From Bacteroidota bacterium (GTDB lineage Bacteria; Bacteroidota; Bacteroidia; UKL13-3): a stretch of DNA of 64,000 nucleotides. Under the pieces are notes generated by a model. The model was not told the origin of the DNA. It made no database searches and saw only the letters and a program-made list of their open reading frames with translations. Positions 8,440 to 37,282 of this stretch are shown here, piece after piece; the stretch's first letter is position 1, and each line of letters opens with the position of its first letter. The translations under genes and the position numbers were made by a program. The stretch lies in the NCBI GenBank assembly GCA_027491355.1, contig JAIXWI010000034.1, positions 4,240 to 68,239 on the forward strand. Reading direction: 5' to 3'.

Positions 8440-8547
8440 TTATTATTTCAAAAAAACAAAATAGCACTGTTAATGTTGTATAAATCTAGCACTTAAAGTT
8501 TTCCATATATTAGAAATTTGGCAATTTAAAGTATCTTTACTTCCGTT

Positions 8548-11500
8548 TTGATAGGCATAACTCCATACCTTAGTCTCCTTAAAAAGTTTGTATTGATATA
8601 CTTCTTTTTATGGAGTTTTGGGCTTTGGGCAAATACATTGCCATCAAGAAATAAAGGAATTGTTTTCATTGAAAACAAAGGACAATGGGATCAAAACATT
8701 TTGTTCAGAGCTGATATTCCAACAGGTAAATTGTTTGTAGAGGCTGGTATCCTGACTTATGTATTTGAAGACAAAGCAAGTTTGCATGAATTGTTACATG
8801 GCAAAACCACTGGCAAAAGTAAATTTCATGCCGTTAAACTCAAATTTGGCAATGCGGCATACATACCAACTGTTGTCAAAGAAAAGGTCTCTCCTATTTA
8901 CTATAACTATTACAAAGGTGCACCTGAAAAATGGGCAAGCCATGTTCAGGCATTTCAGCAAATTACCTTAAAAAATATTTACCCTGGCATACACCTTGAA
9001 TTGCTCACTAAAGGTGATGCCGTAAAGCTGAACTATATCATAGAACCAGGTGCAAACCCCAACCAAATTCAACTTGTTTATGAAGGAGCGGATCGGTTAA
9101 AATTGAAACAAAATGGTTTACAAATCAGCACTTCACTAGGAGAAATTATTGAAGAGGCACCTTATGCTTATCAGCAAATTGGAGTAAAGCAAAACAACAT
9201 TCCTTGTAGTTTGGTTCTGAAGCAAAACATGGTAACATTTAAAGTTGGAAACTACCAGCATCAAAATCAATTGGTAATAGATCCAACACAAATTTTTGGA
9301 AGTTATATTGGTAGTATTGCCGATAATTTTGGCTTTTCTGCTACCTATGACAAAGATGGAAATGTTTATGGTGCAGGTACCGTTTACGATTACACGTTTC
9401 CTTCAACAGCGGGTGCTTATGATTTAACCTTCAATGAAGGATTTGAAGGAGGAGCAGAATTTGCATGTGATGTTTTTGTTTCAAAATTCAATGCAGATGG
9501 CAGTAGTTTATTGTTTGCAACCTATTTGGGAGGGCAAAAAAATGAACAACCTTATAGTTTAGTGGTAAACCCTAACAACGAATTACTGGTTTTAGGAAGT
9601 ACGGGGTCAACAAATTTTCCTACAACGCCAGGTACTTTTGACAATACCCATAACGGATTTTACGATTTATTTGTATCCAAATTTAACAGTGATGGAACAA
9701 GTCTCGTTGCCTCAACTTACATGGGGGGAGACAAAGACGATGGCATCAATGGGCAAATTGCATTTAAGTACAGTACAGATTTCCCACTTGCATACAATTA
9801 TGCTGATTGTTTCAGATCTGAAATTATTTGTGATAATTTAGGAAATGTATACTTTGCAAGTACTACACAATCTCAAAATTTCACCAGTTCAAATGCTGCT
9901 CAGAATTCATTTGGTGGAGGCAATCAAGATGGCATAGTTGTAAAAATGAATGCCAATTTAAACCGTGTATTGTTTTCAACGTTTCTAGGTGGTGCAAAAG
10001 ATGATGCCGCCTATGCTTTGTGCTTAGATGCAAAAAACAATTTATTTGTTTGTGGAAGTTCTAACAGTACCACAATACCAAACATCAAAAACAACAACAA
10101 TGGATTAATAGATGGCATACTTGCCAAATACAATGCAAATTCTGGCGCACTTCAACAATTGGTTTTCCATGGAACAGCTGAAAATGACCAACACTTTTTT
10201 GTACAAACTGATTTAGCAGGATATCCTTATGTTTTAGGACAAACTGAAGGCATTTTACCTCATACTGCAAATACTTATCACAATGAGGGGTCAAAACAAT
10301 TTATCAGTAAGTTTGATTTCCTGTTAGATACAACATTGGTACAAGGTTGTTTTGGAAGTAACGCCATATTACCCAACTTAGTTCCAGCTGCTTTGATGAT
10401 AGATGATTGTGGTAAAATATACATCAGTGGATGGGGAGGTATTGTGAATGAAAATTTCCACTTAGGCACAGGTAATGTCAATAATTTTCCTTTAAGTGCA
10501 GATGCATTTCAAACACAAACAGATGGTTCTGACTTTTACTTCGCAGTTTTCGCTAAAAACATGGTTGGGCTCAATTACGCAAGTTACTATGGAGGCAAAC
10601 AGAGCAATGAACATGTTGATGGTGGAAGCTCTCGGTTTGATAAAAAAGGAATCATTTACCAAAGTGTATGTGCAGGATGTGGTGGTTTTTCTGATTTTCC
10701 AACTACTCAAAATGCCCATTCAAGAAACAACCCAGCTGTAAGACCAAACAGAAATGAGGGTGGCTGTAATTTAGCAATTTTTAAATTTGATGCAAGACCA
10801 GTTAATCAAGCACCTGAGTTTAACGATACACTCCTATACCTAACAGCAGGCGACACCCTCAATTTTGCAATTCAAGTAACAGACAAAGATGCAGACCTCA
10901 TGCAAATTCAGTTAGAAGGCAATTTAATTGGACTGAACCCTGCTAAAATAAAATTGACAGATACCCTTAGCACCTTTGGTTCGCTTAAAGCTTGGTTACA
11001 TTTTTACAGCAACTGTACAGACCATTTAAACGATACTTTTGTAATAACTGTAAAGGTATTTGATGCTGCATGTCCTAATTCATTGACAACTACAAGAAAA
11101 ATTAAAATTCTGGTTTTAGCTCCTGGTATAGAAGCTCCTGTATTAACTTGTGTGAGTAGCAATTCAAACAATTCAATTTTACTCAAATGGGGACAGTCAG
11201 GGGAATTAGCTGTACCCAATCAAATTCAAATTTTTAAAAAAGTAAACAATGGTAAATTCAATTTACTGAGCACTACATCGCAAAACCAATACCTAGACCC
11301 AAACAATGGAATTCAACTCAGCAATTCAATTTGTTACAAACTAGTAGGAATCAACAACTGCGGTATACCAAGTGACAGCTCTAATGAATTGTGTTTTGAC
11401 AATAGCAGCAATGAAAAAGATCGATTGGCGTTTACAAATTTAGATACCATTACAAAAAAAATTCAAGTATTTGATACCCTTGACATCTCATTTACTATAG

Positions 11501-12870
11501 CCTCAAACTTTGGAGATTCTGTTTATGCCAACTTGCTAGCAAATCCAATTTTAAAGAATCCAATTGCTATTCAATTCAGTAGATTAAATTCAGGAATCAA
11601 TTGTAACATCAGATGGATTCCAATATGTGAAAACATCAACAACGACACTTTAAATGTATTAATTGGTGTTTCCGATAACCAATGTCCATTTTCAAATTTA
11701 GCTTCAAAGCTGATACAACTTGTTGTAAAACCTTTACCCAAATTAGGAATTGGAGAAATGGCATGTGCCAATCAAATTGCAGACAACAAGTTGGTTTTAA
11801 ATTGGACTAAATTGCCCAATTCAAATTATGTCAAATCAATACATGTTTTGGAAAAGGTAAATGGAGGCAAACCAAAAGAAGTGGCCGTATTGAACCAAAT
11901 CAACTCGCTCTCCTATACCCTTCAGCAGGTATTTGATTGGAACCAAAATTATTGTTACGCTGTATTTGCTACTGATGTATGTGATTTCCCTGGAGACACA
12001 TCAGATGAGTACTGCACCAAAGACATAGACAAGTTGCTATTTCCTCCCCCTTTTAATTTTGTCACAGTTCAAAACGACCAAGAAATTGTATTGAATTGGA
12101 ATCCATTAGACAGCAACAATTTTGGATCTTACATCATAGAAAAAAAAGTTGGACGAACAGGCAATACATGGACTAAATTGTCTGCTAGGAGCAATTACAA
12201 GGATACTTTATTTACAGACAAATCAGTGAATGTAGATGACAGTTCTTATTGTTACCGCATGTCAGTTGCTAACAAATGTGGAGCAATTGGAGGCACAGGT
12301 AAAGAGGTTTGCAGTATTTTACTTAAAGGCACAGTTTATCCTTTTGAGTACCATGATTTAAGTTGGTTACCTTATACTTATTTCATTACTGGTACGAATC
12401 GATTTGAATTGTACAAATCTGAACCTGGCATTTATGAAAGTTCTTTGTTAGCCATACGAACCAACTCTACCCTCCAATACCAAGACAGGGTATTGAATCC
12501 TGATAATGGCTTGTATCATTATACCGTTGCTGCATTTGAAAAAGGCTTTGGACAAGGGTTTGCGAGTTGGTCAAATACAATTGAATTGGTGCAACCTCCA
12601 AGCTTGTTTGTACCAAACGCAGTTACAGCAAATGGAGACCAATTAAATGATGTGATTAAGACCGTTCATGTGTTTGTTAAAACCTACCAAATAAAAATGT
12701 ACAACCGATGGGGTGAACTCATTTGGGAAAGTAAAGACAAGTACGCGTCAATGCCTGCCACCTATTTGAATAAGCCTTTGGCAACCGATGTGTATTTTTA
12801 CGAAATCAATTATACTGGTTGGGACGACCAATTGTATACAAAAAAAGGAAATATCAGTATCTTGAGGTAA
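8548..12870 (+). CDS. large secreted beta-propeller (SBBP-repeat) adhesin-like protein with a C-terminal T9SS type-B sorting domain
   Basis: Hydrophobic N-terminal signal. Multiple SBBP-type repeats (GNVYGAGTVYD, GNVYFASTT, FVCGSS). The C-terminal 90 aa carry the gliding-motility-associated CTD motifs (PNAVTANGDQLNDV...YNRWGELIW...DVYFYEI). Start codon is uncertain. Confidence 0.7.
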   Translation: MIGITPYLSLLKKFVLIYFFLWSFGLWANTLPSRNKGIVFIENKGQWDQNILFRADIPTGKLFVEAGILTYVFEDKASLHELLHGKTTGKSKFHAVKLKFGNAAYIPTVVKEKVSPIYYNYYKGAPEKWASHVQAFQQITLKNIYPGIHLELLTKGDAVKLNYIIEPGANPNQIQLVYEGADRLKLKQNGLQISTSLGEIIEEAPYAYQQIGVKQNNIPCSLVLKQNMVTFKVGNYQHQNQLVIDPTQIFGSYIGSIADNFGFSATYDKDGNVYGAGTVYDYTFPSTAGAYDLTFNEGFEGGAEFACDVFVSKFNADGSSLLFATYLGGQKNEQPYSLVVNPNNELLVLGSTGSTNFPTTPGTFDNTHNGFYDLFVSKFNSDGTSLVASTYMGGDKDDGINGQIAFKYSTDFPLAYNYADCFRSEIICDNLGNVYFASTTQSQNFTSSNAAQNSFGGGNQDGIVVKMNANLNRVLFSTFLGGAKDDAAYALCLDAKNNLFVCGSSNSTTIPNIKNNNNGLIDGILAKYNANSGALQQLVFHGTAENDQHFFVQTDLAGYPYVLGQTEGILPHTANTYHNEGSKQFISKFDFLLDTTLVQGCFGSNAILPNLVPAALMIDDCGKIYISGWGGIVNENFHLGTGNVNNFPLSADAFQTQTDGSDFYFAVFAKNMVGLNYASYYGGKQSNEHVDGGSSRFDKKGIIYQSVCAGCGGFSDFPTTQNAHSRNNPAVRPNRNEGGCNLAIFKFDARPVNQAPEFNDTLLYLTAGDTLNFAIQVTDKDADLMQIQLEGNLIGLNPAKIKLTDTLSTFGSLKAWLHFYSNCTDHLNDTFVITVKVFDAACPNSLTTTRKIKILVLAPGIEAPVLTCVSSNSNNSILLKWGQSGELAVPNQIQIFKKVNNGKFNLLSTTSQNQYLDPNNGIQLSNSICYKLVGINNCGIPSDSSNELCFDNSSNEKDRLAFTNLDTITKKIQVFDTLDISFTIASNFGDSVYANLLANPILKNPIAIQFSRLNSGINCNIRWIPICENINNDTLNVLIGVSDNQCPFSNLASKLIQLVVKPLPKLGIGEMACANQIADNKLVLNWTKLPNSNYVKSIHVLEKVNGGKPKEVAVLNQINSLSYTLQQVFDWNQNYCYAVFATDVCDFPGDTSDEYCTKDIDKLLFPPPFNFVTVQNDQEIVLNWNPLDSNNFGSYIIEKKVGRTGNTWTKLSARSNYKDTLFTDKSVNVDDSSYCYRMSVANKCGAIGGTGKEVCSILLKGTVYPFEYHDLSWLPYTYFITGTNRFELYKSEPGIYESSLLAIRTNSTLQYQDRVLNPDNGLYHYTVAAFEKGFGQGFASWSNTIELVQPPSLFVPNAVTANGDQLNDVIKTVHVFVKTYQIKMYNRWGELIWESKDKYASMPATYLNKPLATDVYFYEINYTGWDDQLYTKKGNISILR

Positions 12871-14335: not shown

Positions 14336-15769
14336 TCACAAGCTTGAATTCATTAACTGATTGATGCCAATGACCGGCTCCATACCTTTCGATTGCGCTA
14401 TTGCTAACATGAATTCCAATGCAGCAGTGCGTTCATTTTTAACTTGTCCTTCTAATATGGCCTCTCTCAATGCTTCTTTTATTTCACCAACTTGTTTAGA
14501 AGGACCAATGCCAAAACAACGCATGATATCTTCTCCAGTTACCGGAGGTTGCCAATTTCTGAGTGTATCACGTTCTTCTACCTCGCTCACCAGCTCTCTT
14601 ACTTTGTCTAAATTTCTGCGGTACTTTTGAAGTTTTTCCTCGCTTTTAGTGGTCATATCTGCTTTGCACAAAACAAATAAATCGTCGAGGTCTTCACCTG
14701 CATCAACAATTAAGCGTCGTATGGCTGAATCTGTAACACCCTCTTCTGCCAATACTTTTGGTCGGTGATGCATAGCTACAAGCTTCTCCACATATTTCAT
14801 TTTCTCGTTCAAAGGCAGTTTCAAACGCCTGAAAATTCTGGCTACCATTCTACTGCCCTTGTCTTCATGTCCATGAAATGTCCAACCGTCACCAGGTATG
14901 TATTTTTTACAAACTGGTTTACCAATATCATGCAAAAGTATTGCCCACCTCAACCACAAATTATTGGTAGTGGCTGCACCTTGGTCCAATACTTGTAAAG
15001 TATGAATAAAATTGTCTTTGTGGCCTCTTCCATGAACATAATCTATTCCACTCATCTCCATCAGTTCTGGAAATATGAGTTTCAACAAGCCTGAATCGTG
15101 TAAAAGTTGAAAGCCAATAGAAGGTTTTGGGGCAAGTATGATTTTATTGAGCTCATCTGTTATGCGCTCAAATGAAACAATTTGAATGCGGTTTTTGAAG
15201 GCTTGAATGGCCTCGTATGTTTCGGCATGAATTTGAAATGAAAGCTGAGCTGCGAACCTCACAGCTCTCATCATTCTCAATGGGTCATCATCAAATGTGA
15301 TACCTGGCTCTAATGGGGTTTTGAGCAATTGCTGTTGCAGATGCTCCATGCCATTGAAAGGGTCAAGCAATTGTCCAAAATTGTGTTGATTTAAACTGAT
15401 TGCCAAAGCATTGATGGTAAAATCTCTTCTTGATAAATCTTCTTCTAGTGTACCCGGACTGACAATAGGTTTTCTGCTGTTGCGGCTGTAACTTTCTTTT
15501 CTGGCACCTACAAATTCTATTTCAAAATGATTGGTTTTAACCATTGCTGTTCCAAAATTCCTAAAAACAGCAAAATCATGTACCTCATGAAAATGACTGG
15601 CAAATGTTTTTGCAAAAGCTATTCCATCGCCCAATACAACCACATCAATGTCTTTTGAATTGCGTTTTAAAAAGCTATCCCTTACAAAGCCACCCACCAA
15701 ATATGCTTCTGTTCCGGTTAGGGCAGTTGTAGCAGCAAGCTGCTGAAAAAGTAAACCTTCCAATTGCAT
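14336..15769 (-). CDS. cca: CCA tRNA nucleotidyltransferase (polymerase-beta head plus HD domain)
   Basis: Motifs GGFVRDSFL...DIDVVV (nucleotidyltransferase), RRDFTINA, and an HD-domain segment LHDIGK. Start at the ATG 15769 (MQLEGLLF...). Confidence 0.75.
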   Translation of the reverse strand: MQLEGLLFQQLAATTALTGTEAYLVGGFVRDSFLKRNSKDIDVVVLGDGIAFAKTFASHFHEVHDFAVFRNFGTAMVKTNHFEIEFVGARKESYSRNSRKPIVSPGTLEEDLSRRDFTINALAISLNQHNFGQLLDPFNGMEHLQQQLLKTPLEPGITFDDDPLRMMRAVRFAAQLSFQIHAETYEAIQAFKNRIQIVSFERITDELNKIILAPKPSIGFQLLHDSGLLKLIFPELMEMSGIDYVHGRGHKDNFIHTLQVLDQGAATTNNLWLRWAILLHDIGKPVCKKYIPGDGWTFHGHEDKGSRMVARIFRRLKLPLNEKMKYVEKLVAMHHRPKVLAEEGVTDSAIRRLIVDAGEDLDDLFVLCKADMTTKSEEKLQKYRRNLDKVRELVSEVEERDTLRNWQPPVTGEDIMRCFGIGPSKQVGEIKEALREAILEGQVKNERTAALEFMLAIAQSKGMEPVIGINQLMNSSL

Positions 15770-15826
15770 AATCACATGGCAAAAGTAAGCTTTGTATAGC
15801 AAATAATTGTGAAAGGTAAGTGAAAA

Positions 15827-16957
15827 CTATATCAGCGAGGAATATAATTCCTGCCATTGAATGGCCAATTTTTTGTTATCAAAATCCAATGCACGTTCAA
15901 AGCCATTTTTTACCAGCATTTTACGAAGCGCTTCGTCTGATAATATAAAAGTCAATGCTTCTTTAATCTCTGTTACATTGAATGGATCAACACACAGTGC
16001 GGCATCACCTGCAATTTCTGGCAAACAGCTCTTGTTACTTGTTAAAATAGGAACTCCACTCCACATGGCCTCTAACAAGGGTATTCCAAATCCTTCTTCG
16101 TAACTCAAGTAAGCAAAAGCGGCAGCCATTTGGTAAAATACTGGTAATTCATCTATAGAAACATTGTCTAAAAATAAAACTTTTTGTTGAAGCATTTTAT
16201 CTTGAACAAATTCTGCCATTTCAGGAAATAAATCAGCCTTTTTACCAATAAAAACCATTTGGGTATTTGATAAATTTGCTTGTTCAAATGCTTTTAACAG
16301 GTTGAGTTGATTTTTTCTTTTTTCAAGGGTACCAACCGAAAGTATAAAATGGTCTTGTAAATTGTATTTGTTAGCTATTGCTGGGGGTAATGTAGGATTT
16401 GACAGCACTTTAAACAGTGGATTACAATCTTGATAAATGACCGTAATTTTAGTTTCAGGAACTTGAAAATAGTACATCAAGTCCTTTGCGGTTTGTTTAC
16501 TACAAGCTACTACTTTATTAGCTCGGCTCACTGCAGATGCTACTTTTTTACGGTAAATGAGCCTGTCAATTGGCTTGTACAATTCAGGATGTTTTAAAAA
16601 AATTAAATCGTGAATGGTAACCACTGTTTTAATTCCAGTATGTTCTATTCCAATTGGCAATTCATTGCTAAGTCCATGATAAATGACTATGTTATCTGCA
16701 ATTAAATCTTTTACAACACCTTTATTGCGCCAGTTTTTCTTGAACATACGCCCCAAAAAACTTTTGGGTTGGTGAACATAAAGCAGTTGGGTATCCAAAG
16801 CATTTACACTCCCAATTTCTGGGGTGTATAAATGAATTTCAATCAGATTGTTATTCTCATTCAAGCCTTGTACAAGTGTACGGGCATAATTCCCCAATCC
16901 AGTTTTATTGAGAAAATACCGCTTTGCATCATAACCAATCTTGTGTGGGCGCATCAC
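15827..16957 (-). CDS. glycosyltransferase family 4 (GT-B, group 1)
   Basis: C-terminal EGFGIPLLEAMWSGVPIL motif (E-x7-E GT4 signature); N-terminal KRYFLNKTGLGNYAR. Confidence 0.75.
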   Translation of the reverse strand: MMRPHKIGYDAKRYFLNKTGLGNYARTLVQGLNENNNLIEIHLYTPEIGSVNALDTQLLYVHQPKSFLGRMFKKNWRNKGVVKDLIADNIVIYHGLSNELPIGIEHTGIKTVVTIHDLIFLKHPELYKPIDRLIYRKKVASAVSRANKVVACSKQTAKDLMYYFQVPETKITVIYQDCNPLFKVLSNPTLPPAIANKYNLQDHFILSVGTLEKRKNQLNLLKAFEQANLSNTQMVFIGKKADLFPEMAEFVQDKMLQQKVLFLDNVSIDELPVFYQMAAAFAYLSYEEGFGIPLLEAMWSGVPILTSNKSCLPEIAGDAALCVDPFNVTEIKEALTFILSDEALRKMLVKNGFERALDFDNKKLAIQWQELYSSLI

Positions 16958-29592: not shown

Positions 29593-30327
29593 CTATTTCA
29601 TCAATTTCAATACCCTTTCAATGTCTTCAGGGGTATCAACGCAATGGCTATCAAATGTTGTTTCTACGCATTTGATTTTATAGCCCGCTTCTAACCACCT
29701 TAATTGCTCTAGGCTTTCAGCTTTTTCTAAGGCTGATACAGGTAATTTGGTAATGGCTTGCAACACATCTCGGCGGTAAGCATACATGCCCACATGCCTG
29801 TAATAGGAATGGTGTAAATGCCATTCAGCTTCTGGCTTACCTTTTACAAATGGTATCACCATGCGGCTAAAATACAAGGCTTCGTTTTCGTGGTTCAATA
29901 CAATTTTCACTTCACCTTGGTCAAATAAAAAGGCTGAATTGTCAACCTTGATCATTTGGGTGGCCAGTTCTGTTTGACCTTTACAAACCGCACCCAATTC
30001 ATCAATTTGCTGTGGGTCTAAAAAAGGTTCATCTCCCTGAATATTGATGACATAATTGAAATCACCGGCTACATTTTTAAACGCTTCGTAACACCTGTCC
30101 GTTCCACTTGGATGCTCCGCTTTGGTCATCACTACTTCTCCACCAAATGCTTTTACATGCGCTGCAATGCGTTCATCATCAGTTGCCACTACCAACTTGT
30201 CAATGGTTTTGGCTTGTGAGGCTTGTTCATACACCCTTCTGATCATGCTTTTACCTTCAATTACTACCAAAGGTTTTCCCGGAAAACGGGTACTGGCATA
30301 TCTGGCTGGTATTATTCCTAAAATCAT
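29593..30327 (-). CDS. kdsB: 3-deoxy-manno-octulosonate cytidylyltransferase (CMP-Kdo synthetase)
   Basis: MILGIIPARYASTRFPGKPL...VVATDDERI...IQGDEP motifs; 244 aa. Confidence 0.85.
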   Translation of the reverse strand: MILGIIPARYASTRFPGKPLVVIEGKSMIRRVYEQASQAKTIDKLVVATDDERIAAHVKAFGGEVVMTKAEHPSGTDRCYEAFKNVAGDFNYVINIQGDEPFLDPQQIDELGAVCKGQTELATQMIKVDNSAFLFDQGEVKIVLNHENEALYFSRMVIPFVKGKPEAEWHLHHSYYRHVGMYAYRRDVLQAITKLPVSALEKAESLEQLRWLEAGYKIKCVETTFDSHCVDTPEDIERVLKLMK

Positions 30328-30387: not shown

Positions 30388-32289
30388 TTGCGCATGATTT
30401 ATTTGAGAGCAGAAAATCTTTGCAGAAGATACGGAGAAAGAACCTTGTTTAAAAACCTAAATTTAAGCATTGCGAAGGGAGAAAGAATTGCATTGATTGC
30501 AAAAAACGGTACAGGAAAAAGTTCATTACTTGAAATTTTAACCGGAAAAGAAGAGTCGGATGAGGACGGAAAAGTCATCATCGATAAAAACATCACCTGG
30601 ACTTACCTACAACAAGAGCCTGTTTTTAACCCAAGACATACCGTTTTGGAGGCCATTTTCAATACTGAACATCCCAAGTTTAAAACCATTGCTGCTTTTG
30701 AACTCTTAACAGAAAAAATGGAACATGACTCCGAAAATGTTCAAATTCATGAAGAGATGCAAAAAGTAATGGAGGACATGGAATTGCATCAAGCCTGGGA
30801 CTTAGAAAACAAAGTTCAAACCATTTTAACTAAACTCAATTTACACCACCATTTAGAACAAACAGTAAACAGTTTAAGTGGTGGTCAAAAGAAACGTTTG
30901 GCCTTGGCACAGGTATTGATTCAAGAACCAGATTTTGTAATCATGGATGAACCTACCAACCATCTAGATTTACAAATGATTGAATGGTTAGAAGCTTGGC
31001 TACAGGCATTAGACTTAACCCTTTTATTGGTTACCCACGACCGTTATTTCTTGGATAAAATTTGCAATGAAATCATTGAAATTGATGAAGGGCAATTGTT
31101 CACCTACAAAGGCAATTATGCCTATTTCTTAGAAAAGAAAGAAATGCGTGAAACTTACCAAGCAAAAGAAGCAGATGCTGCACGTAAACTCGCTAAAAAA
31201 GAACTGGAATGGATGCGCAAACAACCCAAAGCCAGAACTACCAAAAGTAAAAGCCGTATAGATGCTTATTATGAATTGAAAGAGAAAGCAGCATACCAAA
31301 AAGACGATAGCCAAGTTGAAATTCATTTGCAAATGCAAAGACTGGGCACAAAAATTTTAGAGGTCAGCCATTTAGAAAAAAGATTTGGTGATTTGAGCAT
31401 TTGCGAAAACTTCACCCACTTATTTGTTCCGGGTGAACGCATTGGTATCATTGGTCAAAATGGGGTTGGAAAAAGTACTTTCCTCAACATGCTTTTGGGC
31501 ATAGAGAAACCTGATGGAGGGAAAATTTCAAAGGGCGATACCGTTAAATTTGGCTATTACAACCAGCAAGGCATTCAACTCAAAGAAGACAAAAGGGTAA
31601 TAGAAGTAATCACGGATATTGCCGAATACATTGAAGTTGGTAAAGGGGTAAAAATGACCGCGACCAATTTATTGAAACAATTTTTGTTTGATTCAAAAAA
31701 GCAATACAACTATGTGGGTTCCTTAAGCGGAGGAGAAAAAAGAAGGTTGTACTTATTAACCATCTTAATGCAACAACCTAATTTCTTGGTATTGGATGAA
31801 CCTACCAACGATTTGGATATTGATACCTTGAATGTATTGGAAGATTTTCTTTCGGCATACAATGGTTGTATCTTAATTGTTACCCATGACCGTTATTTCA
31901 TGGACAATTTGGTTGACTCCTTGTTTGTGTTTGAAGGCAATGGTAAAATCAGGTCATTCAATGGCAACTACCAAGAGTATTTGAATTCATTGGAAAATCC
32001 GAAAGAGGAAAAAGAAGCACCAAGCAAACCCTCTATTCAAAATAACACCACAATTAATTCAGAACCAGCAAGCCAATCTAAAAAGAAATTGAGCTATAAA
32101 GAGCAAAGAGAATTGGAACAATTAACTGAAGAGATTGAAATTTTGAGTAAGCAAAAACAGGTGCTTGAACAAAAACTACAAGAACAAGTTTCAGACCATG
32201 CAGCCCTTTTGCAATTGACACAAGATTATGAACTCATCAAACAAAAATTAGATGACAAAGAATTGCGTTGGTTAGAACTCACTGAATAA
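30388..32289 (+). CDS. ABC-F family ATPase, Uup-like (two ABC domains plus a C-terminal coiled-coil domain)
   Basis: Two Walker A motifs (AKNGTGKSS, GQNGVGKST), two LSGG signature motifs, and a K/E-rich coiled-coil tail. Confidence 0.8.
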   Translation: MRMIYLRAENLCRRYGERTLFKNLNLSIAKGERIALIAKNGTGKSSLLEILTGKEESDEDGKVIIDKNITWTYLQQEPVFNPRHTVLEAIFNTEHPKFKTIAAFELLTEKMEHDSENVQIHEEMQKVMEDMELHQAWDLENKVQTILTKLNLHHHLEQTVNSLSGGQKKRLALAQVLIQEPDFVIMDEPTNHLDLQMIEWLEAWLQALDLTLLLVTHDRYFLDKICNEIIEIDEGQLFTYKGNYAYFLEKKEMRETYQAKEADAARKLAKKELEWMRKQPKARTTKSKSRIDAYYELKEKAAYQKDDSQVEIHLQMQRLGTKILEVSHLEKRFGDLSICENFTHLFVPGERIGIIGQNGVGKSTFLNMLLGIEKPDGGKISKGDTVKFGYYNQQGIQLKEDKRVIEVITDIAEYIEVGKGVKMTATNLLKQFLFDSKKQYNYVGSLSGGEKRRLYLLTILMQQPNFLVLDEPTNDLDIDTLNVLEDFLSAYNGCILIVTHDRYFMDNLVDSLFVFEGNGKIRSFNGNYQEYLNSLENPKEEKEAPSKPSIQNNTTINSEPASQSKKKLSYKEQRELEQLTEEIEILSKQKQVLEQKLQEQVSDHAALLQLTQDYELIKQKLDDKELRWLELTE

Positions 32290-32997
32290 TCAGGGTGTTG
32301 GCGTTTCTTTGATACCTTGCTCAGCTACTGTAAAAAAGTGGGTGGAAAGGCTTTGTCTTTGGGTAATATAACTGGTATAATTGCCATGGTAGTTTGTTCT
32401 TTCTCTCATAATGGCATCATAGTTACCGCTTAAGCCTATGAGCATTTCACAGGCTTCTCTTACTGCAAAATTACCACTTTCATGACCAGTTACATAGTCT
32501 GCCAAGTTGTTTTGTACCACATAATGCTTAAACAAAGGATTGGCTTTGCGGTTGATTAAAATGCGCAATCCACAGGCGGATGCAATACTCAAATCCAATA
32601 CATCATCAAAAAAATAGCATACCTCGTGCATGGCCAATTCATGTTCATGACAAAAATGCTGCAGGGCATCTATTTTATGGGCTATTTTATAATATGCCGA
32701 TTGAAAATGCTCTCTTTGGGCAAAATAAAATGCTTGTTCGTTTTTCTCTCCTGAAATGATTGCAGCCAGAGGCATTTCATTGTTTTTATAAAAATGGGCG
32801 TACCTCAATAAGTTGGTTCCCATGCTATCCGCTTCATTGAAATTGCTGCTATTATTGGCATTTTTAGCTGCATCGTTGAATACACCATCCCAATCAAATA
32901 CAAATGCTTTTATTTGATTCAATTTTTCTACAATGGCTCTGGGTCTTTGAACAAAAACACCTCCAATGGCCTCAAATTCATTTACAATTGTTTGCAT
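32290..32997 (-). CDS. HAD-IIIA phosphatase, KdsC-like (Kdo-8-phosphate phosphatase) with an N-terminal extension
   Basis: HAD motif I FVFDWDGVF. C-terminal ADYVTGHESGNFAVREACEMLIGLSG closely parallels the KdsC ADYVT..GG.GAVREVCDLLL block. Context: kdsA, kdsB. Confidence 0.6.
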   Translation of the reverse strand: MQTIVNEFEAIGGVFVQRPRAIVEKLNQIKAFVFDWDGVFNDAAKNANNSSNFNEADSMGTNLLRYAHFYKNNEMPLAAIISGEKNEQAFYFAQREHFQSAYYKIAHKIDALQHFCHEHELAMHEVCYFFDDVLDLSIASACGLRILINRKANPLFKHYVVQNNLADYVTGHESGNFAVREACEMLIGLSGNYDAIMRERTNYHGNYTSYITQRQSLSTHFFTVAEQGIKETPTP

Positions 32998-33014: not shown

Positions 33015-33044
33015 TAAAAAAAGGAGGTTGAAGCCTCCTTTTTA
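33015..33044 (-). terminator. rho-independent terminator (minus orientation) after the Tal-CBS gene
   Basis: AGGAGG-TTGAAG-CCTCCT hairpin with a T-run on the minus strand. Confidence 0.6.
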
Positions 33045-33061
33045 CTTATTTATATTGTGAA

Positions 33062-34072
33062 TTAAGATTCTAAATCTTGGATGTCTAACATGCCTACTGG
33101 TTTGCCATTTTCTGTTACCAAAATGGTATCAACTTTGGTTGATTTGAAAACCACTGCAGCATCGTTCAACAAAGCGTTTGAATCAATTGAAACAGCAGTA
33201 CCGTATTCAAAATCACCCATTTTCTTAGCCAATACATCTCTGCCATCGTTTTGGATTTTTCTGCGTAAATCGCCATCGGTGAATACCCCTTTTAAAGAGC
33301 CATCTGAATTGATCACAGTAATGGCACCAAACCCAAATTCAGTCATTTTGATGATGGCATCAGACAAATTCGTATTGACATCAATTGTTGGATTGACACC
33401 ATTCAATACTTCTTTTACCCTTACGGTCATTAAACGGGTATCTCTGATGAATTGATCGGTTCCAACTGTCGTGAAATGATTTTCTGTCAACTGTTTCATG
33501 ATTTTCAATGGAACAGTGATGGTATGCACTCCCAAGTTTAAAGCATTTCTGATATGCTCCATGGTTCTAACCGATGAGAACATCACTTTGGTATCGTAAC
33601 CATAATGGTCTACAGCTGAAACGATTTGACTTACTAAATCCAAAGCATCATGGCCTTGGTCTTGTAACCTGCCTACCAATGGGCATACATAAGTAGCACC
33701 TGCATGCATAGCCATGTATGCTTGTTGCAAAGTGTAAACCAAATGTACATTTACTAAATATCCTTTGCTACGCAATAATTTACAAGCTCTTACACCTTCT
33801 AATGATACTGGAATTTTAAATACTGTTTTTTTAGGGTCTAAACCCAATGCCAATTGTCTTTCTGCTTCTTTTAACACATCTTCTGCTGTATCTCCTAAAG
33901 CTTCAATTTGAAGTACAGGTACCATTTTAGACAATTTTACAATCATCCCGTCAATATCTGTAATCCCTTCCCTTTGCATAAATGTCGGGGTAGTGGTTAG
34001 GCCATTTAAAAAGCCCAATTTAAAACCTTCTTCAATCTCTTTCAGATTGGCTGAGTCTAAATATAATTCCAT
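33062..34072 (-). CDS. fusion protein: transaldolase/fructose-6-phosphate-aldolase (Tal/Fsa) catalytic domain plus a C-terminal KdsD-type CBS pair
   Basis: The first ~215 aa are colinear with small Tal/Fsa enzymes: MELYLDSANL with the Asp, GLTTTP, Schiff-base Lys in TVFKIP, NVHLVYT, AGATYVCPLVGRL, GHDALDL. The last ~120 aa are two CBS motifs including GVFTDGDLRR, which is near-identical to KdsD's GIFTDGDLRR. Confidence 0.7.
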   Translation of the reverse strand: MELYLDSANLKEIEEGFKLGFLNGLTTTPTFMQREGITDIDGMIVKLSKMVPVLQIEALGDTAEDVLKEAERQLALGLDPKKTVFKIPVSLEGVRACKLLRSKGYLVNVHLVYTLQQAYMAMHAGATYVCPLVGRLQDQGHDALDLVSQIVSAVDHYGYDTKVMFSSVRTMEHIRNALNLGVHTITVPLKIMKQLTENHFTTVGTDQFIRDTRLMTVRVKEVLNGVNPTIDVNTNLSDAIIKMTEFGFGAITVINSDGSLKGVFTDGDLRRKIQNDGRDVLAKKMGDFEYGTAVSIDSNALLNDAAVVFKSTKVDTILVTENGKPVGMLDIQDLES

Positions 34073-34150
34073 AATTAATTCTTGCTAATAACGCACAATA
34101 ATAAGCCAAATTTATGAATTCAAAAACCCTCTTGTTACAAGGGCTTTTGA

Positions 34151-34981
34151 TTACTTTCTGAATTTCACTTCAGTTTGGTGAATTTCAATCAATGGTTTTA
34201 AAAACTCTTCCAAATCATCAATACACAATTGCGAAGCCGCATCGCACAATGCTTTTGATGGCTCTGGGTGGGTTTCAATGAAAATACCATCTATACCTGC
34301 AGCTACACCTGCCCTACTCAAAACTGGCAAAAATTCTCTGGCTCCTCCATTTGGATCTGCGCTAGGTGTGCCATATTTCCTTACACAATGCGTTACATCA
34401 AATACCACTGGGTAGCCAATATTTCTGAGGTGGTAGAAACTTCTTGGATCAACAATTAAATCGTTGTAACCAAATGTAAATCCTCTTTCTGTTAAAATCA
34501 CTTGGTCGTTACCCGATTCAACACATTTGGCAACAGGATGCTTCATGTTTTCAGGTGCTAAAAACTGACCATGCTTGATATTCACAACCTTACCTGTTTT
34601 TGCAGCTGCTACCATTAAAGTACTTTGCATACACAAATAAGCTGGAATTTGAATCACATCTACTACTTCACCAGCAGCAGTTGCTTGTTCTGGGTAATGT
34701 ACATCTGTTAAAATAGGGAAACCAAATTGTTCTCTGATTTTAGCCAACAATTTAACACCCTTGTCTAATCCTGGTCCATCGTAGTATTTTAAACTACTGC
34801 GGTTGTCTTTTTGAAAAGACGATTTATAAATTACTTCTATTTTCAATCTTTCAGAAATCTCTTTCAGCATTTCTGCTGTTTTCATCATGATTGATTCATC
34901 TTCAATTACACATGGGCCTGAAATCAGAAACAAGTTATCTGAGCCACATTCAATATTTCCTACTTTTACAATTTTTGTCAT
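34151..34981 (-). CDS. kdsA: 3-deoxy-8-phosphooctulonate synthase (Kdo8P synthase)
   Basis: 276 aa; FKSSFQKDNRSS, GPGL, ILTDVH, VVDVIQIPA, NIKHGQF, FDVTH and AAGIDGIFIETHP are colinear with KdsA. Confidence 0.85.
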   Translation of the reverse strand: MTKIVKVGNIECGSDNLFLISGPCVIEDESIMMKTAEMLKEISERLKIEVIYKSSFQKDNRSSLKYYDGPGLDKGVKLLAKIREQFGFPILTDVHYPEQATAAGEVVDVIQIPAYLCMQSTLMVAAAKTGKVVNIKHGQFLAPENMKHPVAKCVESGNDQVILTERGFTFGYNDLIVDPRSFYHLRNIGYPVVFDVTHCVRKYGTPSADPNGGAREFLPVLSRAGVAAGIDGIFIETHPEPSKALCDAASQLCIDDLEEFLKPLIEIHQTEVKFRK

Positions 34982-34992
34982 TTGTTTAACAA

Positions 34993-36075
34993 TTACATTC
35001 TTCTAAATAAAGACTCAATAAATCCGATATCAATTTTTTCTTTCCAATCAGTACCAATGGCATGGTTCCACATGTGGTGCAAATTATACGCAACATGTGC
35101 CATTGCTGTAATTTCTTGGTCTGTCCAATTCTTGCTCAAACCTGTAGGTAAAACAATCTTGTGTTTGGCCAACATGCTGTTAAATTCTGCAACACCTTCC
35201 GGATAAAAATCACTGAGGTGTTGAAAAGCCAAACAATTGGCATAGCAGTGTTTTTCACCAAAAATTTTACTCAATCCGTAACTCAAAGCATGGCAAACAC
35301 CAACTTCACTGTAGGTAAGGCTCAAACCACCCATCAAAGAGGCAACCATTAATTTGTCATCATTTTCTGGTGATTGACCAGCCTGTTCTCCTAAATAGAT
35401 TTCTCTGCATAATTTCAGCGATTGCTCGCCGTAAGCCATGCTATAAGCATTGTTTAAAATACCATCACGGCTTTCAATGCAATGAATAAAAGTATCCATT
35501 CCGGTATAAAACCATTTGTCAACAGGAACAGAAGCAGTCAATTCAGAATCTAAAATCACTTGGTCAAAAATGGTCCATTCGCATTTCAAACCTAATTTTT
35601 TCTCAGGACCAGTTAATACAGCAGTCATGCTACATTCGGCTCCAGTTCCTGAAATTGTAGGTACGCCCACATGGTAAACACCTGGTTTCTTAATTAGGTT
35701 TAAACCTTGGTATTGAACTGAAGAACCTTCATTGGTTAGCATCAAGGCTGTTGCTTTTGCTATGTCCATGATACTGCCACCACCAATACCTATTAAACCA
35801 GCAGGAAGTCCGGATTTGGCTAATATTTCATCTCTCAATTGGTCTATTTGCTCGGTTGTAGGTTCATGTGGGTCTACATCAATGAAATAAACCAAGTCAT
35901 TCGCTTTTGAAGGCAATTGCTGAGCCAATGCTTTGTTTTTGAAAAAGGCATCAACTACAAATACCATGTAACCATTGTTCAGGTGACGCTTTTCTGCTAA
36001 AATTTCATCCAGTTGGGCGAAGCTTCCTCTTCCAAAAACTGTTTTTTCTATGCTTTTAAAATTCTTGTGACTCAT
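34993..36075 (-). CDS. iron-containing alcohol dehydrogenase / dehydroquinate-synthase-like superfamily oxidoreductase, KdnB-like
   Basis: GIGGGSIMDIAKA glycine-rich NAD motif and His-containing metal ligand regions. It lies 11 bp upstream of kdsA and 10 bp downstream of a DegT aminotransferase. Confidence 0.65.
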   Translation of the reverse strand: MSHKNFKSIEKTVFGRGSFAQLDEILAEKRHLNNGYMVFVVDAFFKNKALAQQLPSKANDLVYFIDVDPHEPTTEQIDQLRDEILAKSGLPAGLIGIGGGSIMDIAKATALMLTNEGSSVQYQGLNLIKKPGVYHVGVPTISGTGAECSMTAVLTGPEKKLGLKCEWTIFDQVILDSELTASVPVDKWFYTGMDTFIHCIESRDGILNNAYSMAYGEQSLKLCREIYLGEQAGQSPENDDKLMVASLMGGLSLTYSEVGVCHALSYGLSKIFGEKHCYANCLAFQHLSDFYPEGVAEFNSMLAKHKIVLPTGLSKNWTDQEITAMAHVAYNLHHMWNHAIGTDWKEKIDIGFIESLFRRM

Positions 36076-36085
36076 GCAATAAAAC

Positions 36086-37282
36086 TTATTTCAAAACTGA
36101 TTGTATTGCTTTGCCAATTGCAGCAACCAAAGCTTTCAATTCTTCCTCAGTCCATGTAGCTTTGATACTGAATGAAATTAACCTTCCTATGGTACTTTGG
36201 GTTTTTGGCAAATCTAGGTTAGAGTAATCTTGAGGCGCCCCTAATAATTGTACATTTGTTTTTGCAGCAACCCTACCTTCTTTGATGTGGTCCCATTGGT
36301 TGATAAAATGATACATATTGGTGTACCAATAATTGAAGCCTGTTATGCCATTTTGGTTGAATGCGTTGACTGTTTTTTGAGCCAAGATCGTATCTGGCAA
36401 AAGAATGTTTAAAAAGGTAGCCGAATCACCATCTTTATCTGGAATTTCAGCAAACGATACACCTTTTATTTTGCCTAATTCTGCCATCATAAACTTTTTA
36501 TGGCTATTGTTCAAAGTTCGGATTTGAGGCACTCTTCTCGTTTGGGCCAAACCTACAGCAGCATGTAACTCAGAAATGCGGTAATTGAATCCTAGTACAG
36601 GATGATTTTCCATGCCTCTGTTATTGCCTTTGTGGTCATGCCCATGGTCTGCATAATTATCAGCCAATTTGTATGCTTTCTCACTATTGGTAACCATTAC
36701 ACCTCCTTCACCAGCGGTTGCAATTTTAAAAAAATCAAAACTGTAACATCCAGTTGTTCCCCATAAACCAGTGGAAACGCCTTTGTAACTTGCAGCCATT
36801 GCTTGTCCTGCATCTTCAACTAAAACCAAATTATTTTCTAAAATTACTGGCATGATTTCATCCATGTTGGCCATTTGACCACACATATGAACCAATAAAA
36901 CGGCTTTGGTTTTTGGGGTGATTGCTTTTTTTATACCTGCTGCACTAAGACAAAGTGTTTCATCAATTTCTGCAAATACTGGTAAAGCGCCTGCAAAAAT
37001 AACTGCTTCAACTGATGCTATGTAAGTGAAAGGTGGAACGATTACCTCGTCTCCTGCACCAATGCCAGCTGCTGCCAGAGCACAGGAAACAGCAGTTGAA
37101 CCACTTGATACTGCATGTGCGTATTTTGCACCTACCAGGTTGGCTACTTCTTTTTCAAATTCTTTTGCTTTCCAAATATTGTTTCGTTGAGCATCATGGT
37201 TGTATCTGAATAAAATGCCCGTTTCTAATACGTCGTTGATTTCTTTTTTCTCTTCTGCTCCAAAAAATTCGGTTCCTGCCAT
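36086..37282 (-). CDS. DegT/DnrJ/EryC1/StrS-family PLP-dependent aminotransferase, KdnA-like
   Basis: 398 aa; SSGSTAVSCALAAAGIGAGDEVIVPPFTYIASVEAV and a downstream PLP-Lys region typical of the sugar aminotransferase fold. Confidence 0.7.
   Translation of the reverse strand: MAGTEFFGAEEKKEINDVLETGILFRYNHDAQRNNIWKAKEFEKEVANLVGAKYAHAVSSGSTAVSCALAAAGIGAGDEVIVPPFTYIASVEAVIFAGALPVFAEIDETLCLSAAGIKKAITPKTKAVLLVHMCGQMANMDEIMPVILENNLVLVEDAGQAMAASYKGVSTGLWGTTGCYSFDFFKIATAGEGGVMVTNSEKAYKLADNYADHGHDHKGNNRGMENHPVLGFNYRISELHAAVGLAQTRRVPQIRTLNNSHKKFMMAELGKIKGVSFAEIPDKDGDSATFLNILLPDTILAQKTVNAFNQNGITGFNYWYTNMYHFINQWDHIKEGRVAAKTNVQLLGAPQDYSNLDLPKTQSTIGRLISFSIKATWTEEELKALVAAIGKAIQSVLK

Follow-up and report, generated by a model that had tools for sequence, protein, structure and literature searches.

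The DNA analysed here, called the window throughout, is a stretch of 64,000 nucleotides from a Bacteroidota bacterium (GCA_027491355.1, contig JAIXWI010000034.1, positions 4,240 to 68,239 of the forward strand), and our subject is a minus-strand gene within it that joins a barrel of the transaldolase (Tal)/fructose-6-phosphate aldolase (FSA) type to a CBS pair of the kind found in the arabinose-5-phosphate (A5P) isomerase KdsD. The gene lies among genes for the sugar 3-deoxy-D-manno-octulosonic acid (Kdo), and comparative context strongly supports the view that a Tal barrel stands here where the SIS isomerase domain should be. We infer the function of the fusion (its substrate, product and regulation) from genomic evidence, and on that evidence we lean towards the reading that it supplies A5P to Kdo-8-phosphate synthase in place of KdsD, using aldol chemistry at Lys86. 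The gene and its parts are as follows.

33062 to 34072, minus strand: the TAL-CBS fusion gene, a single open reading frame of 336 amino acids plus stop (Pfam TAL_FSA and CBS; AlphaFold2 pLDDT 95.5).
33425 to 34072, minus strand: Tal/FSA-type TIM barrel, amino acids 1 to 216, including a C-terminal helix at amino acids 199 to 216 (phmmer matches to 3r8r, 1.8e-37, and 1vpx, 2.3e-36; Foldseek).
33065 to 33424, minus strand: KdsD/KpsF-type CBS pair, amino acids 217 to 336, with GVFTDGDLRR at amino acids 262 to 271 (TIGR00393; 4o9k).
33815 to 33817, minus strand: codon of Lys86, the predicted Schiff-base lysine (aligned to the KIP-motif lysine of 3r8r, 1vpx and 3s0c; codon checked).
33743 to 33745, minus strand: codon of His110, in place of the conserved Thr of Tal and FSA (alignment; codon checked).
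33677 to 33685, minus strand: Cys130-Pro-Leu132, in place of Ser-Pro-Phe (Tal) or Ala-Pro-Tyr (FSA) (alignment; codons checked).

Pfam detects both of the domains named in the initial annotation (TAL_FSA, PF00923, at amino acids 3 to 201 with an E value of 3.6e-34, and two stretches of CBS, PF00571, with an E value of 3.1e-14), and the barrel scores 118.9 bits against a PF00923 cutoff of 27; the motifs cited there (MELYLDSANL, FKIP with Lys86, and GVFTDGDLRR) are all present. The AlphaFold2 model is very confident (pTM 0.79, with the pLDDT given above), and in Foldseek its barrel superimposes on 1vpx, 3s0c and 3r8r with template modelling scores, relative to the target, of 0.91-0.94, a root mean square deviation of 1.4-1.5 Å and an identity of 31-34%. 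No PDB chain found by Foldseek with this model spans both domains. An assembly artefact is excluded, because the 120 best database matches (120/120) are proteins of 336-337 amino acids with both domains.

The kinship with KdsD lies in the C-terminal part. For amino acids 213 to 334 the top NCBIfam matches are kpsF (TIGR00393, 4e-16), KdsD (3e-12) and GutQ (5.5e-10), and TIGR00393 aligns amino acids 215 to 329 to model positions 153-267 of 268 only; the best PDB sequence matches of the region are all CBS pairs of arabinose-5-phosphate isomerases (4o9k at 6.8e-13, 3k2v and 3fna), in agreement with the earlier assignment of this pair to the KdsD type. A SIS domain (PF01380), the catalytic domain of KdsD, KpsF and GutQ, was found in the fusion by neither Pfam nor NCBIfam, such that the protein answers to the description of those enzymes in the type of its CBS pair and in its genomic association with kdsA, kdsC and kdsB.

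The catalytic site of the barrel is partly kept and partly changed. Aligned to the transaldolases of B. subtilis, T. maritima and T. acidophilum, the fusion retains Asp6, Glu57, Lys86, Asn108, Arg135, Ser167 and Arg169, and hence the features that define the family: the Schiff-base lysine, the Asp and Glu/Gln partners (D6, E57) and the phosphate-binding Arg/Ser/Arg (R135, S167, R169). We take the KIP-motif lysine of 3r8r, 1vpx and 3s0c to be their catalytic lysine (Lys86 in the T. acidophilum enzyme). The initial annotation had credited the protein with every Tal/FSA hallmark, which proved too generous: Asn28 is replaced by Thr, Thr110 by His, Ser130 by Cys and Phe132 (Tyr in FSA) by Leu, and the protein reaches 161 bits against a cutoff of 246 for TIGR00875 (fsa_talC_mipB) and lies below the cutoff of every Tal and FSA model in NCBIfam. 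The Thr at position 28 is a feature of the window protein's clade, other catalytic fusions having Thr or Asn there. With His110, Cys130, Leu132 and equivalog scores below cutoff, the fusion falls outside the functional transaldolases (TalC/TacTal type) and FSA.

We compared eleven active-site positions among representatives of clusters at 50% identity. Standard short transaldolases read DNEKNTSFRSR and FSA-like proteins DNQK.T[SA]Y...., and every catalytic fusion reads D[TN]EK[NS]HCL[RK]SR. All 120 close fusions examined and all 117 distant ones carry the His110/Cys130/Leu132 signature, that is, 237/237 catalytic members down to about 30% identity, all of which also retain Lys86; such conservation points to purifying selection on the changed site, and this universal signature, coupled with scores below all Tal and FSA cutoffs, argues that the fusions form a distinct Tal/FSA subfamily with a re-tooled active site. 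Positions 110, 130 and 132 (and 28 in this clade) presumably surround the donor C1 hydroxyl and the catalytic water in Schiff-base structures of Tal with fructose 6-phosphate (F6P); a literature search on the residues of this C1-hydroxyl pocket (Ser130 and Asn108) found nothing. Because Glu57 is kept and the Tyr of FSA is missing, the site would be more like that of a transferase that retains its intermediate than that of a free aldolase.

These residues bear directly on another explanation, in which an ordinary transaldolase or F6P aldolase of the pentose-phosphate pathway has gained a CBS pair like that of KdsD, adjusting ribulose 5-phosphate (Ru5P) provision to Kdo demand, with a normal kdsD elsewhere in the genome. 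The intact Asp6, Glu57 and Lys86 core and the intact phosphate site are what such an enzyme would have; His, Cys and Leu at three positions that are near-invariant in Tal and FSA, in all catalytic fusions, and scores below every equivalog cutoff are not. Together with the genomic evidence below, this leads us to regard it as unlikely.

The genes around the fusion in the window, listed here, introduce that genomic evidence.

34151 to 34981, minus strand: kdsA (Kdo-8-phosphate synthase), 78 bp upstream of the fusion (NF003543, 352 bits, cutoff 242).
32290 to 32997, minus strand: divergent KdsC-like HAD phosphatase of 235 amino acids (KdsC PRK09484, 9.4e-14, below cutoff).
34993 to 36075, minus strand: Fe-ADH family gene, KdnB-like (Kdo 8-oxidase) (Pfam Fe-ADH).
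36086 to 37282, minus strand: DegT-family aminotransferase, KdnA-like (Pfam DegT_DnrJ_EryC1, 2e-72).
29593 to 30327, minus strand: kdsB (CMP-Kdo synthetase), detached by an ABC-F gene (NF003952, 320 bits, cutoff 193).
30388 to 32289, plus strand: ABC-F ATPase gene between the kdsC-like gene and kdsB.
33018 to 33043, entered without a strand: strong palindromic hairpin, AAAAAGGAGG-loop-CCTCCTTTTT, with a T7 run after it (as read on the minus strand), lying between the fusion and the kdsC-like gene (scan for terminator-like sites).

Read along the minus strand, the genes are DegT aminotransferase, Fe-ADH, kdsA, fusion and kdsC-like, with the gap of 78 bp between kdsA and the fusion that had been noted before. 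Of the operon proposed in the initial annotation, the kdnA-like, kdnB-like, kdsA and kdsC-like genes do form one minus-strand cluster with the fusion; kdsB does not belong to the fusion's operon in the window, because the plus-strand ABC-F gene intervenes.

To place this arrangement in a wider context, we examined 99 fusion loci with 10 kb on either side, counting those with the relevant flank or flanks readable. The fusion has kdsA directly upstream at 55 of 88 loci and a kdsC-like gene downstream at 48/80, and at least one Kdo gene is found in 54 of the 74 loci with both flanks. Across Chitinophagales the order kdsA-fusion-kdsC-like(-kdsB) is conserved, with kdsB contiguous with the kdsC-like gene in L055-L059, L061 and others. 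The cluster of strain LGM1 (CP075895.1, locus L061) reads waaA-x-x-kdsA-fusion-kdsC-like-kdsB and has neither the DegT nor the Fe-ADH gene, indicating that the fusion is linked with the core set of Kdo genes. In our metagenome scan the shared CBS motif also drew in dozens of canonical KdsD genes, and the order at canonical loci L103, L109, L119, L123, L154 and L160 is kdsB-kdsA-kdsD(SIS+CBS)-kdsC, to be set beside kdsB-kdsA-fusion-kdsC-like at L090. The fusion occupies the kdsD position of the same four-gene cassette. The conserved kdsA-fusion-kdsC slot thus sustains the architecture and the Tal-for-SIS replacement put forward in the initial annotation; the reading is weakened by Glu57 and Leu132, residues at which the protein is unlike FSA.

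The same slot recurs far from Bacteroidota. A Thermoplasmatota archaeon metagenome-assembled genome (MAG; GCA_038740425.1, locus L172) has a complete cassette of overlapping kdsB-kdsA-fusion-kdsC genes at 8444-11577, in which KdsB (320 bits, cutoff 255) and the Kdo-8-phosphate synthase, KDO8PS (341 bits, cutoff 242), are above the NCBIfam equivalog cutoffs and KdsC (170 bits, cutoff 107) is above the family cutoff for YrbI/KdsC. The organism has no lipopolysaccharide (LPS) and yet encodes a Kdo-type sugar pathway. That the fusion holds the kdsD slot of kdsB-kdsA-X-kdsC cassettes with no SIS gene nearby, the archaeon included, is a further argument against an ordinary transaldolase.

Fusions at 35-45% identity in other groups again stand beside KdsA-like and KdsB-like genes (L082, L083, L084, L169 and L173): in L084 the order is KdsB-like, methyltransferase, KdsA-like, fusion, and in L083 and L169 the fusion is accompanied by KdsA-like and KdsB-like genes and by radical-SAM enzymes. 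The surroundings of L083, L084, L169 and L173 are glycan clusters with radical-SAM/SPASM enzymes, TylF-type methyltransferases, glycosyltransferases, Wzy and NeuB, and these clusters may make modified Kdo-like sugars; L169 also encodes an extended KdsA-like protein of 686 amino acids. One could read from such clusters that the fusion serves another aldose phosphate or keto-acid sugar, by making an acceptor other than A5P for a KdsA-like synthase or by an aldolase-type step on Kdo-8-phosphate or Kdo, in the synthesis of modified Kdo-like sugars, and His110 could conceivably bind a carboxylate. We consider this quite improbable. The partner synthase passes the KDO8PS equivalog cutoff in the window, L172 and L173, for which reason A5P should be its substrate; the Chitinophagales cluster contains waaA, kdsB and a kdsC-like gene and is that of housekeeping LPS Kdo; and Asp6, which we take to be the ligand of the donor 3-hydroxyl, is invariant, arguing against 3-deoxy substrates.

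We searched for the missing isomerase by tblastn, with an E. coli KdsD sequence as the SIS probe. The probe works, since it picked up a SIS domain in 57 of 71 other metagenome loci. It detected a KdsD-type SIS domain in none of the 99 fusion loci (±10 kb; 0/99) and nowhere in the 64-kb window, consistent with the earlier remark that the window has no SIS-domain kdsD, and tblastn found no second Tal in the window either. The only SIS gene near any fusion, 4.3 kb from it in L173 (Chloroflexota), was rejected as a KdsD: it encodes a GmhA-like protein of 184 amino acids at 15300-15854 and, like a NeuB gene, lies a few kilobases downstream of the fusion, so that this cluster may build more than one acidic or heptose sugar. 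Among the canonical KdsD loci of the metagenome scan there were none from Chitinophagales (best neighbour identity about 55%). We infer that kdsD may be absent elsewhere in the fusion-bearing genomes as well.

Four loci have a gene for an ordinary NVTL/SPF transaldolase next to canonical kdsD; the two are divergent in L098, L100 and L101, and in L099 the transaldolase gene lies 1.8 kb downstream. This adjacency could have seeded the fusion. It also means that a functional link between tal and kdsD exists, a point in favour of an ordinary transaldolase under KdsD-like control. Stand-alone Tal matches (L098-L101, L104 and L114) were considered as an unfused variant of the fusion and rejected, being ordinary NVTL/SPF transaldolases.

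In a scan of one genome per GTDB species, close relatives of the fusion were found in at least 529 species genomes, mostly of uncultured freshwater Bacteroidota/Chitinophagales, with carriers including Flavipsychrobacter, Chitinophagaceae bacterium IBVUCB1 and strain LGM1 (whose genome is complete). Full-length fusions reach down to about 30% identity, and a profile search found them in MAGs labelled Thermoplasmatota, Heimdallarchaeota (P0455), Chloroflexota and Planctomycetota. In the source records the proteins are annotated no further than as 'transaldolase family protein', 'TalC/MipB family fructose-6-phosphate aldolase' or 'CBS domain-containing protein', and no paper describing a TAL-CBS fusion was found in the literature searched. 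Contigs titled Vulcanococcus limneticus, Chitinophaga pinensis and uncultured Bifidobacterium sp. or Akkermansia sp. carry the fusion at 79-90% protein identity (L006, L011, L014, L028, L031 and L078; the first three with flanking Kdo genes as well), and these records are probably mislabelled or contaminated MAGs.

A small group of paralogues (P0125 and P0126, at loci L085, L087 and L088, with P0132 and P0143) has 31-43% identity and keeps GVFTDGDLRR. P0125, P0126 and P0132 adjoin an upstream Peptidase_M61 gene instead of Kdo genes, and the contig of P0143 is too short for neighbours to be seen. This subgroup has lost the catalytic residues and is likely to consist of pseudoenzymes or regulators; its conservation despite that loss is the point in favour of regarding the whole family as a non-catalytic sensor or regulator, whose Tal barrel binds a sugar phosphate and whose CBS pair binds a nucleotide. 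For the window protein this would be an extremely improbable role, as Lys86, Asp6, Glu57 and the phosphate site are unchanged in it and in all 237 Kdo-linked relatives, among sequences that share as little as about 30% identity, and Pfam detects no DNA-binding or output domain in the fusion.

We propose that the fusion arose when the SIS-coding part of an ancestral kdsD was swapped for a short-type transaldolase barrel, and that the product took over the job of KdsD, its operon position and its C-terminal regulatory CBS pair. KdsA requires A5P. As in Tal and FSA, Lys86 would form a Schiff base. A5P corresponds to F6P minus C1. As a C1 aldimine on Lys86 it would occupy the site that F6P does, held by the same anchors for the phosphate (Arg135, Ser167 and Arg169), its C2-C5 and phosphate lying where C3-C6 and phosphate of F6P lie, in keeping with the unchanged phosphate site; the changes Thr110 to His, Ser130 to Cys and Phe132 to Leu would then face the part of the site in which F6P has its C1 hydroxymethyl. 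An enzyme-bound glycolaldehyde enamine would add to D-glyceraldehyde-3-phosphate (G3P) to give A5P. This chemistry, glycolaldehyde plus G3P to A5P, was already suggested in the initial annotation, and is documented for E. coli FsaA and for TalB F178Y, which yields both A5P and ribose 5-phosphate (R5P) (PMC9947464). The covalent adduct of A5P with transaldolase named in the title of Light & Anderson 2014 is a further chemical precedent.

The two-carbon unit could come from free glycolaldehyde, as in FSA (the idea of the initial annotation), or from retro-aldol cleavage of R5P with the two-carbon enamine retained, for a net 2-epimerisation between R5P and A5P. We slightly prefer the second source, because the minimal kdsB-kdsA-fusion-kdsC cassette encodes no source of glycolaldehyde, which favours a start from a central metabolite, and because the site is transferase-like. 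Two other routes to A5P were considered and rejected: a Heyns/Amadori-type isomerisation of Ru5P on Lys86, in which the rearranged product would remain bound as a covalent secondary amine, and transfer of dihydroxyacetone, which would need an octulose-8-phosphate donor. Because the CBS pair retained is of the KdsD type, the new catalytic domain has most likely inherited KdsD's ligand control, with a nucleotide of the pathway, for example CMP-Kdo, as the probable ligand. We found no match in the open-text literature for CMP-Kdo binding to the KdsD CBS pair; PDB entry 4O9K may contain CMP-Kdo.

In its boldest form the proposal is of a class I (lysine Schiff-base) pentose-phosphate 2-epimerase, converting R5P to A5P via an enzyme-bound glycolaldehyde unit under feedback control through the CBS pair, and taking the place of KdsD entirely, both in hundreds of species of Bacteroidota and in the Kdo-type glycan clusters found in Planctomycetota, Chloroflexota and archaea; all of this together we rate as rather doubtful.

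Several points weigh against A5P supply by the fusion, or against parts of the scheme. The strict threo-selectivity that Tal and FSA normally display speaks against R5P as a donor. The cassette has no conserved enzyme that forms glycolaldehyde, and the Tyr and Gln that define FSA as an aldolase are missing, the fusion having Leu132 and Glu57. The absence of SIS covers ±10 kb per genome and the 64-kb window, which leaves room for the normal kdsD that the reading as an ordinary transaldolase assumes. Twenty of the 74 two-flank loci have no Kdo gene nearby, which would likewise suit an ordinary transaldolase. The paralogues P0125, P0126, P0132 and P0143 lack Lys86, Asp6, His110, Cys130 and Arg135, from which it follows that the TAL-CBS scaffold can persist without this catalysis. 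Finally, with ordinary transaldolase A5P is reported to be a covalent inhibitor and not a substrate, to judge by the title of Light & Anderson 2014, on a covalent adduct of A5P with transaldolase, as cited in PMC7407102 and PMC7895386.

That inhibition, and the documented A5P aldol chemistry of the FSA type, would also suit a role in A5P removal or buffering: the fusion would be either an overflow valve, in the form of an A5P aldolase, or a Tal insensitive to A5P, and in both cases it would shield the pentose-phosphate pathway from inhibition by A5P and be switched by the CBS pair, the presence of which suggests metabolite control. FsaA reportedly cleaves A5P as well as forming it. We find such a role very improbable: a degradative enzyme is not expected in the kdsD slot of minimal biosynthetic cassettes without a SIS gene, and toxic glycolaldehyde would be released.

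Some further features of the clusters deserve description. A weaker hairpin with a T-run lies at 34129-34143, after kdsA, and both this and the hairpin at 33018-33043 are terminator- or attenuator-like elements inside the cluster; terminator-like sites are no more numerous in the region than in shuffled sequence. The ABC-F gene parts the kdsC-like gene from kdsB in the closest relatives too (L001-L006 and L037), and in more distant Chitinophagales kdsB directly follows the kdsC-like gene. The kdsC-like gene of the window is atypical (235 amino acids versus about 175-188 for KdsC, with no Pfam match and scores below cutoff for KdsC models), is still co-conserved with the fusion, and is replaced by a standard KdsC in the archaeal cassette. 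The pair of Fe-ADH and DegT genes directly upstream of kdsA (34993-37282, minus strand, in the window) is also present in L001-L024, L055-L059 and others, and in relatives the DegT gene is always accompanied by the Fe-ADH gene. Because a KdnB-like Fe-ADH and a KdnA-like transaminase both adjoin kdsA, the arrangement suggests that these Chitinophagales make 8-amino-Kdo (Kdo8N), which to our knowledge is known only from Shewanella.

As far as we know, Kdo and LPS synthesis is regarded as universally beginning with the A5P isomerase (KdsD, GutQ or KpsF), which serves as an antibacterial target and pathway marker. If the proposed A5P supply is correct, it amounts to a non-orthologous displacement in an essential envelope pathway, fills an apparent gap that the Kdo pathway of these genomes would otherwise show, and places a complete Kdo-type cassette in archaea; were the 2-epimerase form of the proposal also true, the rule that kdsA implies kdsD or gutQ, which is the accepted expectation (PMC3402364), would be broken. 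A natural, selected A5P-forming aldolase could also become available, an enzyme that the builders of a synthetic A5P-dependent pathway for glycolaldehyde assimilation say is missing (PMC9947464). The conserved His/Cys/Leu variant is in any case a defined start for studying how Tal/FSA chemistry is retuned.

Compared with known systems, the fusion resembles KdsD, KpsF and GutQ in the type of its C-terminal CBS pair (the GxFTDGDLRR motif and the top NCBIfam and PDB matches), in its position between kdsA and kdsC in Kdo cassettes and in its presumed product, A5P. It differs from them in having no SIS domain, and because catalysis falls to a TIM barrel of the Tal/FSA kind, unrelated to SIS and equipped with a Schiff-base lysine, the ene-diol isomerase mechanism of SIS enzymes is impossible for it. 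With the short-type (subfamily 5) transaldolases of B. subtilis (3r8r), T. maritima (1vpx) and T. acidophilum (3s0c) it shares the fold and the core and phosphate-site residues, and it departs from them at positions 110, 130 and 132, in the extra 120-amino-acid CBS pair and in its link to a Kdo operon rather than to pentose-phosphate pathway genes. FSA belongs to the same family and has the same fold, and the formation of A5P from glycolaldehyde and G3P by FsaA is the type of reaction proposed for the fusion (PMC9947464). The residues that make FSA an aldolase, Gln59 and Tyr131, and its Ala129 correspond to Glu57, Leu132 and Cys130 in the fusion, and the A5P reaction of FsaA is a side activity without a known physiological role. 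In L-ribulose-5-phosphate 4-epimerase (AraD), a pentose phosphate undergoes retro-aldol cleavage, and its fragments, which are not released, are rejoined to give the epimer. The logic is the same as that proposed for R5P and A5P, as a mechanistic analogy only: AraD has a metal-dependent class II aldolase fold, acts on a ketose at C4 and is not homologous to the fusion. By predicted fold and core residues, the fusion is to be classed with the Tal/FSA superfamily, having only the CBS pair and the operon slot in common with KdsD, and it is a member of the Tal family in which the domain fusion is new and the physiological reaction probably so.

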